From sequence record DRR378314_107: 29,432 nt of DNA, one strand, 5' to 3'. Both the position numbers and the translations under genes were made by a program. The notes below the pieces were generated by a model. That model was not told where the DNA came from and searched no databases. It saw nothing but the letters and a program-made list of their open reading frames with translations. Within the stretch, counting starts at the first letter, position 1, and each line of letters starts with the position of its first letter. This document shows, one piece after another, positions 18,425-20,107 of this stretch.

Positions 18425-19054
18425 ATGGCCCAAGATCCGACCCAGCGCCTTCTCCACCAGGCCCGCTTCCTGAAAAGCGCCCAGAACGTGGAACAGTGCC
18501 CCCCGGACGCGGGTTTCGAGGTGGCCTTCGCCGGCCGCTCCAACGCCGGCAAATCCAGCGCCATCAACCGCCTCACCGGCCAGCGGACCCTGGCGCGCAC
18601 CTCCAAGACCCCGGGCCGCACCCAGCTGCTGAACTTCTTCGAGCTGGACGAGGAGCGGCGCCTGGTGGACCTGCCCGGCTACGGCTACGCCAAGGTGGAC
18701 AAGGTGACCCGCCAGCAATGGCAGCGCGACCTGGACGATTATCTGGCGCGCCGGCAAAGCCTCACCGGGCTGGTGCTGCTGATGGACATCCGCCATCCGC
18801 TCAAGGATTTCGACCGTCTGATTCTGGAATGGTCGGCGCGCGCCGGCATGCCGCTGCACCTGCTGATCACCAAGGCGGACAAACTCAAGTACGGCGCCGC
18901 CAAGAACACCCTGCTGCAGGTGCTCAAGGACGTCCGCGATCACCCGGCGCCGCTCAGCGCCCAGCTGTTTTCCGCCACCAACGGCAGCGGCTGCGACGAG
19001 GCCTGGCGCCAGCTCGGCACCTGGTTGGCGGTGCCGCCGGACCCGGCGGGCTGA
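18425..19054 (+). CDS. engB: Ribosome biogenesis GTP-binding protein YihA/YsxC
   Basis: [28 protein letters not shown]. Confidence 0.97.
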
Positions 19055-19175
19055 CCGGGTCCGTCACTCCGGCGACGTTTTACGACACCGCTCTGGCGCA
19101 GGGGCGGCACCGGCCAAAGCGTGCCGACTCAGTGTAACCCACTGACATAAAACGTCTTTTACCGATTTCCAAAAA

Positions 19176-19192
19176 CAGGCATGCCTCTTGCT
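19176..19192 (+). promoter_or_regulatory. Putative sigma54 (-24/-12) promoter
   Basis: CAGGCATGCCTCTTGCT: GG(19178)-N10-GC(19190) with TTGC; IHF-like TAACCCACTGAC at 19135 and palindromes further upstream. Confidence 0.6.
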
Positions 19193-19243
19193 TCAGTGAA
19201 CGGCAAGAAGAAGGAAGAGGGGAAGTCCCACTTTTCAGTGGGC

Positions 19244-19296
19244 AAAAAAAATCCCTGGCAGCAAGTGGGGGAAGGGAACGACTGCGCTGCCAGGGA
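19244..19296 (-). terminator. Rho-independent terminator of the candidate sRNA (may also end Mrp read-through)
   Basis: TCCCTGGCAGC...GCTGCCAGGGA-TTTTTTTT on the minus strand. Confidence 0.8.
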
Positions 19297-19393
19297 GGCT
19301 TGCCGCCCCAGCCTCCTGGGGGAGAGACCGGGGTGTCCAGAAGCTACGAACCGGTGAGGGTACTGGGGGATCGGGGGTACCGGTCCGTAGCTA
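19244..19393 (-). ncRNA. Candidate ~150-nt sRNA with C-rich loops (positional analogue of Spot42/ErsA/sX13)
   Basis: Long 5' stem (19342-19355/19379-19392), internal hairpins, terminator stem (19252-19262/19286-19296) followed by U8; sigmaE-like promoter just upstream; convergent on engB. Confidence 0.72.
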
Positions 19394-19398
19394 TTGAT

Positions 19399-19428
19399 TA
19401 GGACTGGCCGCCTTTGGAAAAAGTTTCC
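19399..19428 (-). promoter_or_regulatory. Putative sigmaE/AlgU promoter for the sRNA
   Basis: Minus strand GGAAACTT-N16-GTCCTA, ending about 6 nt before the first stem. Confidence 0.55.
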
Positions 19429-19494
19429 ACGTCCTAATACCTTTTACAAATTTCATAATTCCTGCACAACAAGCACTATTAAACCCGCTTGCGG

Positions 19495-19827
19495 CTACTG
19501 CTTCCAGGGGCCGCCGCGGGTATCTTCCCGGCGCTTCAGATTGCGGTGCATGGCCGCCTTGGCCAGCATGTGCGCCGATACCGGTGCGGTGATAAACAGG
19601 AACAGAACGATCAGCACTTCCTGGAGCTGCAACGCCCGCTCCTGCCAGGAGAAAAACAGCAGCGACCCGAGAATGGTGCCGCCCACGCCCAGGGTGCTGG
19701 CTTTGGTCGGGCCGTGCAGACGCAGATAAAAATCCGAAAGCCGCACCAGGCCGATGGACCCCACCAGCGCGAACACCGCCCCGACCAGAATGAAGGCACT
19801 GACCAGAAATTCAACGATCTCGTTCAT
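19495..19827 (-). CDS. mrpG: Mrp/Pha Na+(K+)/H+ antiporter subunit G
   Basis: GLVRLSDFYLRLHGPTKASTLG, FITAPVSAH; start MNEI at 19827. Confidence 0.93.
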   Translation of the reverse strand: MNEIVEFLVSAFILVGAVFALVGSIGLVRLSDFYLRLHGPTKASTLGVGGTILGSLLFFSWQERALQLQEVLIVLFLFITAPVSAHMLAKAAMHRNLKRREDTRGGPWKQ

Positions 19828-19837
19828 AGTGTCGTCC

Positions 19838-20107
19838 CTACTCGATGATGTCGCCACGCAACATGTATTTGGCCACCGCCACGGTGCTCACGAAGCCGAT
19901 CAACGCGATCAGCATGGCGGCCTCGAAATAGAGCTTGCTGTCCGAGGAAATGCCGTACAGCACGATCAGCCCGATGGTGTTGATGTACATGGTGTCCAGG
20001 GCCAGGGCCCGGTCCGGCAGCGTGGGCCCGCGCAACAACCGGTACAGGTTGAGCAGCAGGGCCAGCACGAACAGCCCGAAGGCAATCGTCAGCGCGGTCT
20101 CTAGCAT
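19838..20107 (-). CDS. mrpF: Mrp/Pha antiporter subunit F
   Basis: RLLRGPTLPDRALALD...GFVSTVAVAKY..RGDIIE. Confidence 0.93.
   Translation of the reverse strand: MLETALTIAFGLFVLALLLNLYRLLRGPTLPDRALALDTMYINTIGLIVLYGISSDSKLYFEAAMLIALIGFVSTVAVAKYMLRGDIIE

Follow-up and report, generated by a model that had tools for sequence, protein, structure and literature searches.

We found that the 440-bp spacer between two convergent genes in the window (the whole 29,432-nucleotide stretch of record DRR378314_107 that was analysed) very probably holds a genuine sigma-54 promoter making a plus-strand RNA, and that this promoter points head-on at a sigmaE-type small RNA (sRNA) encoded on the minus strand. 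Our preferred reading, to which we give a probability of roughly 0.55, joins promoter and antagonism: a convergent RNA gated by a bEBP and sigma-54 would, we infer, antagonise the sigmaE sRNA in cis. If this is true, the locus offers a simple example of two stress and signal pathways integrated by convergent transcription. The organisms belong to Alcanivorax, a dominant group of oil degraders in the sea, and growth on alkane strongly induces the target sRNA in the published tables drawn on below.

The spacer, which is the setting of both RNAs, separates engB from the last gene of an antiporter operon. Upstream of engB lie dsbA and two c-type cytochromes, an order also found around engB in Pseudomonas. 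The best named relative of the window's EngB comes from an uncultured Alcanivorax sp. (78% identity), and the minus-strand sRNA is letter for letter the homolog printed for A. venustensis ISO4 in the portion of PMC9788540 used here. The features of the locus are listed below; every coordinate given in the original prediction proved correct when the letters were read directly.

18425-19054, plus strand: engB/yihA, left neighbour of the spacer
19062..19088, plus strand: putative upstream activator site (enhancer), CGTCAC (19062-19067), N15, CGACAC (19083-19088); invariant in 8/8 close relatives
19129..19148, minus strand: IHF-like region, degenerate ATGTCAGTGGGTTA, 2 mismatches to WATCAANNNNTTR
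19177..19193, plus strand: predicted sigma-54 promoter aGGCATG-CCTC-TTGCt, -24 GG at 19178-19179, -12 GC at 19190-19191
19203..19243, plus strand: 5' part of the predicted sigma-54 transcript, +1 at ~19203-19205; invariant in 8/8 relatives
19203-19225, plus strand: purine run GCAAGAAGAAGGAAGAGGGGAAG, letters read directly
19227-19242, plus strand: hairpin CCCAC-TTTTCA-GTGGG, letters read directly
19244-19251, plus strand: A8 tract, letters read directly
19244..19392, minus strand: sigmaE-type sRNA, ~149 nt, three stem-loops with C-rich loops (fold z -5.35)
19252-19297, minus strand: terminator hairpin of the sRNA, then U8 (19251-19244)
19396..19452, plus strand: candidate terminator, its hairpin spanning the sigmaE promoter, with ACCTTTTACAAATTT next
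19398..19428, minus strand: sigmaE-type promoter, GGAAACTT (19428-19421), N17, TCCTAA (19403-19398), from aligned copies
19495-19857, minus strand: last gene of the mrp/pha-type antiporter operon, right neighbour of the spacer

The spacer was searched against 41 related genomes. Seven relatives align end to end at 86-99% identity, giving a close alignment of eight sequences (the window and the 7 full-length relatives); among the remaining members of the genus, alignment is restricted to 19231-19456, which corresponds to the minus-strand sRNA and its promoter. A wider comparison covers 40 loci from three Alcanivoracaceae genera: 21 from g1 (the window included), 11 from the 24 genomes of g24 and 8 from the 8 of g3. 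As these 40 loci are kin, counts made over them overstate independence.

By itself the promoter motif proves nothing, because GG-N10-GC occurs in the window at chance frequency (16 matches to GGCAC-N5-TTGC with at most one mismatch, against 15.41 expected from shuffles), and it is conservation that decides. The window promoter departs from the consensus in having A for T before GG and T for C at the sixth position. Within the close alignment, the block 19172-19193 is unchanged in 8/8 sequences and has variable flanks, there is free variation in 19092-19170 and in the nine bases separating -12 from +1, and 19203-19251 is invariant in 8/8. Judged from the alignment, two fixed blocks amid free variation are the pattern expected of a promoter. 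Conservation of the -24/-12 element in relatives, which the original prediction had named as one check, is borne out by this invariant block and by the motif's presence in all 40 loci, where [N]GGCA[CT]-N5-TTGC stands on the plus strand facing an sRNA copy. Other g1 members and the second genus have spacers that cannot be aligned, yet they carry (T/C)GGCA(C/T)-N5-TTGC on the plus strand before the sRNA terminator; TGGCA(C/T)-N5-TTGC(T/A/C) faces the sRNA copy on the plus strand in 18/18 of the loci from g24 (11) and g3 (7). The -12 GC lies 42-174 nt before the A-tract of the sRNA in 38/40 loci and ~290 nt before it in L017 and L018, because these two contain an insert of ~100 nt. This insert, ~100 nt before the sRNA terminator and between the sigma-54 RNA and the intact sRNA, includes A6-TCGCCGGGAGCGA-T5 and looks like the degraded 3' end of an additional sRNA copy.

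Loci from the family's other genera, five in all, have no such promoter, and in them engB ends ~25 nt from the sRNA terminator. GGCA[CT]-N5-TTGC[ATC] occurs in 0/78 stretches downstream of engB in other gammaproteobacteria (53,212 bases scanned on both strands; a locus wanting a stop codon was dropped from this control set). A scan for sigma-70 promoters and terminators gave no match in the spacer. From these sequence comparisons, what is kept by selection between lineages is the combination of promoter, enhancer and convergent geometry, and not the length or sequence of the transcript.

The putative enhancer overlaps the palindrome CGTC (19062-19065)-N8-GACG (19074-19077). On the plus strand, 92-147 nt before the promoter motif and most commonly at -112 to -125, [CTG]GTCA[CG] (YGTCAC-type) is present in 38/38 loci, with flanks that cannot be aligned; together with the 40/40 loci that have the promoter motif and the empty control, this bears out the claim of a sigma-54 promoter with an upstream activator site. 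In g1 and g24 a second, looser site (CGACAC, CGGCAC or TGGCAC) follows 15 nt after the enhancer core, and in g3 the enhancer consists of three to five direct repeats in 10-bp phase. A whole sRNA copy stands between engB and the enhancer in g24, and the element therefore belongs to the promoter and not to the 3' end of engB. A genome scan for YGTCAC-N15-YGRCAC returned 9 matches in each of two relatives (G001 and G005), as against 0 and 1 in the reversed controls.

The IHF site is present at the place originally named and is canonical in sister lineages, WATCAANNNNTTR with at most one mismatch occurring at -42 (or -64/-65) from the promoter motif in 15/38 loci, but in the window itself it is degenerate; there, and in L001 and L002, an IHF-like site with 2 mismatches occupies the same place. 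The palindromes to which significance had been attached fared unevenly. CGTC-N8-GACG lies in a conserved block, but the other two are not widely kept: CGGCAC (19105-19110)/GTGCCG (19121-19126), with N10 between the arms, is intact among relatives in L002 only and has one arm changed in L001, and TCAGTG (19129-19134)/CACTGA (19140-19145), with TAACC as its N5, is limited to the two closest relatives.

The machinery (rpoN and the bEBPs) was read in the nearest genome, G001, which encodes an RpoN with Sigma54_AID, CBD and DBD present. Exact TGGCAY-N5-TTGCW occurs 15 times in this genome as against 2 for the reversed control, one occurrence preceding glnA together with NtrC-type sites, and at none of the 15 is there a GTCAC enhancer comparable to that of this locus. 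The rpoN gene itself has an exact sigma-54 promoter motif, TGGCATGATTATTGCT, 36 nt upstream of its reading frame (L143). Only three strong bEBPs (Sigma54_activat) are encoded in each of G001 and G005: NtrC, whose gene is accompanied by that of NtrB; PilR, with a kinase bearing 6TM_PilS and with a DAO oxidoreductase and a FimT-like pilin as neighbours; and CbrB, with a 983-aa kinase upstream and pcnB downstream. These being the three bEBPs of the small-genome relatives, the activator should be one of them. PilR is the best candidate, at about even odds; NtrC and CbrB each have a slim chance, and an activator other than these three is improbable to a slightly lesser degree.

In 7/7 genomes pilA has a sigma-54 promoter with upstream inverted repeats of the GTCAC-N3-GTGAC type, whose GTCA[CG] core is common to the enhancer described here. 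That core is GTCAC throughout, unlike the CbrB sites (TGTTAC/GTAACA) and unlike the NtrC sites of glnA. NtrC and CbrB are less likely because of these differences in motif, and CbrB also on expression: between hexadecane and acetate the CrcZ-like sRNA before pcnB rises (+3.91), whereas the pilin gene (-0.09) and the plus-strand RNA do not, in the tables of PMC9788540 used here. Against the match to PilR, the pilA sites are inverted repeats, whereas the second half-site here is degenerate or the repeats are direct. As hallmarks of PilR, PMC8035640 cites TGT-N11-ACA, and PMC6058289 cites TGTN11AGA together with GTCT elements. That the pilin-sensing PilS-PilR system, through sigma-54, drives a head-on RNA switching off one copy of the sigmaE envelope-stress sRNA (the ErsA counterpart) is a tentative and rather doubtful refinement. 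If true, two alternative sigma factors would converge within 250 bp in an RNA switch that links pilus biogenesis to envelope stress and that has persisted while three Alcanivoracaceae genera diverged and its target was duplicated. Between cbrB and pcnB of G001 (L113:2590-2780, minus strand) we noted an A-rich CrcZ-like RNA with AACAACAA, AAGAAGAA and AATAACAACAACA motifs followed by a terminator, with TGTTAC/GTAACA sites in front; this region has no Rfam match at E up to 1, and no canonical GG-N10-GC could be placed before it.

The facing sRNA was found in 58/70 genomes of the family, including 19/19 of g1, 24/24 of g24 (as two tandem copies) and 8/8 of g3. Among 57 aligned copies, GGAACTT, a 16-17-nt spacer and TC(C/T/A)TAA are present in nearly all, with variation in a few distant copies, and the copies also keep three stem-loops, whose C-rich loops are invariant, and a terminator ending in U7-8. 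A 30-pair consensus over 56 sequences has 184 G-U versus 15 A-C cells on the minus strand, and the alifold energy is -39.1 for the minus strand versus -26.1 for the plus strand; therefore the structured RNA is the minus one. With its GGAACTT-N17-TCCTAA promoter and its minus-strand structure, the sRNA is what the promoter had been said to fire at, head-on. Against the ErsA model (RF01719) it scores 15.8 bits, below the gathering score of 50, and Rfam searches of the loci of nine relatives gave weak anti-hemB-like matches on the sRNA only; in position, however, it is ErsA-like, being convergent, just after engB and under a sigmaE-type promoter. Two copies of the sigmaE sRNA in some species are reported in the part of PMC9788540 that we used. 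Tandem duplication, with copies ~420-640 nt apart, is seen in g24 (L114-L123 and L133) and in g3 (L127, L128 and L130); at duplicated loci copy A abuts engB and copy B is faced by the sigma-54 promoter. Thus in g24, as in part of g3, the promoter is placed between the two copies and faces one of them, which in g24 is copy B.

Upstream of the sigmaE promoter, positions 19438-19447 (minus-sense TGTAAAAGGT) are conserved in three genera at a variable distance from the -35; this motif may act as an UP-like element, or it may supply the U-tract to a plus-strand terminator. The candidate plus-strand terminator over the sigmaE promoter (19396..19452) covaries between lineages and has a conserved CTTTTACA; in a strand test of this hairpin over 44 sequences, the plus sense was the more stable in 17 and the minus sense in 26.

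Published dRNA-seq of A. dieselolei B-5, of which we draw on selected tables and passages, bears on both RNAs (PMC9788540). There the spacer between the GTPase gene and CPA3 subunit G holds only two sRNAs in the tables consulted: sRNA4757961 (plus strand, with a TSS, 136 nt, end assigned by 'coverage decrease', RPM 4-28) and sRNA4758272 (minus strand, with a TSS, 143 nt, 6th of 549 on hexadecane). The letters of sRNA4757961 are those after the promoter in locus L016. The 50 nt preceding its TSS hold CTGGCACAGCCCTTGCT, the RNA starts with GCAA (PMC9788540, Tables S2 and S5), and the TSS lies 14 nt after the C of TTGC (Table S5). The window has the same GCAA at 19203, in agreement with the +1 originally placed there. 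The promoter of sRNA4757961 was typed 'Sigma 70', with 'ND' from ANNOgesic, and that of sRNA4758272 'Sigma 24 & Sigma 70' (PMC9788540, Table S5); for the former, the sigma-70 call is here corrected to sigma-54. In the passages used, sRNA4757961 appears as one of 549 candidates with homologs in two species only, and no link is drawn between the two RNAs (PMC9788540). Although the sequence of the plus-strand RNA was thus reported earlier in two species, the promoter-plus-RNA module described here is found in three genera.

As catalogued, the plus-strand RNA stops 25 nt short of the A-tract, and a 33-nt gap, which contains a hairpin (hairpin X) and the A/U tract, parts it from where the minus-strand sRNA is annotated to end; the TEX enrichment of the plus-strand RNA is slight (5 vs 4 and 13 vs 10), all in the tables of PMC9788540 used here. 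Between hexadecane and acetate the two RNAs change in opposite directions, the sigmaE sRNA having a log2FC of +3.94 (padj 2.4e-14) and the plus-strand RNA one of -1.36, which is not significant (p 0.118); for these values the first three columns of Tables S16 and S17 of PMC9788540 were taken as hexadecane, on the basis of their agreement with the labelled RPM of Table S2.

The absence of a protein gene behind the promoter, as originally stated, holds in the window and its relatives: the sole ORF starts within the promoter, and its start is lost in relatives. This ORF (19181-19357, 58 aa) was rejected as a candidate, its ATG lying inside the promoter and upstream of +1 and its start and frame not being kept across lineages. 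No intrinsic terminator was found in the window between +1 and the sRNA gene, and an Rfam search of the plus strand gave no match at gathering and nothing credible at E up to 10. The leader before the A-tract is ~41 nt long in the window versus ~160 nt in A. dieselolei; over all lineages its length varies (30-162 nt) and no alignment can be made from one lineage to another, and the purine run is found in g1 and part of g3 but is absent from g24. Common to the lineages are the promoter, the enhancer, the hairpin that immediately precedes the A-tract, and a placement head-on to exactly one sRNA copy. The hairpin at 19227-19242 is a second hairpin directly after the U-tract of the sRNA and is found at the same place in most aligned sRNA copies; it occurs whether or not a sigma-54 promoter faces the copy, shows compensatory changes and, read on the minus strand, frequently has GAAAAG as its loop.

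RNA data for the species of the window consist of unstranded contigs without start or end: a 464-nt contig from a single-organism run spans 19020-19483, and a 940-nt metatranscriptome contig spans 18934-19873, both indicating presence of RNA only. In one metatranscriptome (X3) two contigs break at 19276-19305, and one of them bears ~20 loose T after 19305, inside the terminator hairpin; a tailing artefact would account for this end, as would polyadenylation of a fragment.

A mechanism consistent with these observations would run as follows. A bEBP and the sigma-54 promoter, with the enhancer ~115 nt and the IHF site ~42 nt upstream, would make a non-coding plus-strand RNA from ~19203-19205, and we infer that this RNA depends on both RpoN and the activator. 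Polymerase would run from there toward the 3' end of the minus-strand sRNA (19392 to 19244), head-on to this abundant, sigmaE-dependent and ErsA-positioned RNA, and the act of transcription or its product would reduce how much of the facing copy is made or how active it is, either by polymerase collision and interference or by pairing with the terminator or 3' end of the sRNA. Taken separately, antagonism of the sigmaE sRNA by the plus-strand RNA has a little less than an even chance. The combination of a kept promoter, enhancer, hairpin and geometry with an unkept leader argues for action in cis rather than through a conserved trans seed. Against this reading stand the published ends, which do not overlap, the low read counts, slight TEX enrichment and non-significant expression change of sRNA4757961, the departures of the window's promoter and IHF site from consensus, and the candidate plus-strand terminator over the sigmaE promoter, whose stability is divided between the two senses. 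The insert of L017 and L018 counts against it too: its ~100 nt with the A6-stem-T5 element part the plus-strand RNA from an intact sRNA, and cis overlap may therefore not be needed there.

Two elements of the original prediction concerning pairing were not upheld, although CTTCCCC is indeed present in the loop of the minus-strand terminator hairpin. It had been proposed that GGGGAAG pairs with this CUUCCCC as a specific sponge seed. The duplex energy of leader and sRNA beat 95% of shuffles in 0/20 lineages (60 shuffles per lineage; a three-lineage run gave the same picture); we rejected the specific seed, which is no better than shuffles in 20/20 lineages and whose purine run genus g24 lacks. 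Nor does the expectation that read-through would be fully antisense fit A. dieselolei, where the plus-strand RNA stops short of the A-tract with no overlap as annotated in the tables used.

The sigma-54 RNA could instead be an independent trans-acting sRNA, for example one that binds Hfq or acts as a sponge through its purine or ARN run, which merely shares the spacer and terminator region with its neighbour and has no cis effect. We regard this as unlikely, though deserving of weight: the RNA of A. dieselolei is, in the published tables, a discrete 136-nt species without overlap with its neighbour, the A6-stem-T5 insert lies between the two genes in L017 and L018, g1 and g3 have purine-rich leaders (0.50-0.70), most of them containing GGGG runs, and AAGAAGAA in the window fits the AAnAAnAA/ARN type of Hfq motif. 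A trans seed, however, is expected to be conserved, whereas neither the length nor the sequence of the leader is kept and g24 has no purine run; pairing energy with the sRNA, as noted, beats 95% of shuffles in none of the 20 lineages, and the fixed head-on placement by one sRNA copy in 40/40 loci is left unexplained. Cis antagonism remains our preferred reading.

Other readings are less probable still. The element might bind sigma-54 holoenzyme and a bEBP for another purpose, as a roadblock or terminator aid for read-through from engB or as a poised promoter without a consequential RNA; the very low level of the plus-strand RNA in the one data set, as tabulated, would suit this, as would the enhancer block of g1, which adjoins the engB stop and has a weak hairpin and TTTT. 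We consider it improbable, given that the promoter and enhancer of g24 lie beyond sRNA copy A, away from engB, that a TSS is recorded for A. dieselolei in the tables used, and that the complete UAS-IHF-promoter geometry is kept. More improbable again is a promoter whose product is a small protein or a longer RNA running antisense to the mrp operon. An ORF does exist at 19181-19357, mrpG lies downstream on the opposite strand in 31 loci, and sRNA4757961 is among the RNAs with Ribo-seq reads (PMC9788540, Table S9), but the ATG precedes +1, the lineages share neither a start codon nor a frame, and no plus-strand RNA beyond the sRNA is recorded for A. dieselolei in the tables consulted. That the motif is a functionless chance match to GG-N10-GC, as its frequency in the window would allow, is scarcely credible in view of the block invariant in 8/8 sequences, the 40/40 loci with the motif, the control of 0/78 and the A. 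dieselolei TSS.

Among the closest known systems is ErsA/Pseudomon-1 (RF01719), the sigma-22/AlgU-dependent sRNA of Pseudomonas, which has the same place and orientation as the window sRNA and, like it, a sigmaE-type promoter and C/U-rich loops. In Pseudomonas sp. L032, ErsA (140.8 bits) lies convergent, 62 nt after the engB stop. Unlike the window, the engB-ErsA gap of Pseudomonas has no room for a sigma-54 motif and contains none, and the portion of the ErsA paper PMC13613067 that was available makes no mention of antisense, RpoN or sponge. The analogy with CrcZ drawn in the original prediction stands for the architecture, since CrcZ-type sRNAs have the same three-part promoter (enhancer, IHF site and sigma-54) driving a non-coding RNA, and the window has AAGAAGAA. 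It fails for the activator site: the TGTTAC-N14-GTAACA CbrB sites of CrcZ/CrcY are not what is found here, where the enhancer core is GTCAC, and relatives carry a separate A-rich CrcZ-like RNA between cbrB and pcnB, which has the opposite carbon-source response in A. dieselolei as tabulated. The PilR-dependent pilA promoters of the same genomes share with this locus a sigma-54 promoter and GTCA[CG] elements ~70-130 nt upstream, but their sites are inverted repeats with a 3-nt spacer, whereas here there is one strong and one degenerate site, or direct repeats in 10-bp phase.

The sRNA4757961/sRNA4758272 pair of A. dieselolei B-5 has, in the published tables used, the same spacer, the same strands and the same promoter letters as the window. 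A search of literature titles and terms, limited to what those records contain, found no case of a sigmaE sRNA whose 3' end is faced by a conserved enhancer-dependent promoter, and the passages of papers searched by term make no mention of RpoN or sigma-54 at this locus or of an antisense partner for ErsA. The arrangement itself has parallels: SdsR/RyeA of E. coli (PMC6610125) are, as is proposed for this locus, opposite-strand sRNAs at one locus, reciprocally expressed, one being the antagonist, and the mutually cis-encoded CJnc190/CJnc180 of Campylobacter (PMC8687705) are a pair of the same type, according to the parts of these papers drawn on. In those sources both pairs overlap demonstrably, whereas the annotated ends here leave a 33-nt gap. 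Unlike either pair, this locus has its candidate antagonist under an enhancer-dependent sigma-54 promoter and its target under sigmaE. Sigma-54-dependent sRNAs and cis-encoded sRNA antagonists are each known separately, and the combination of both would be new.
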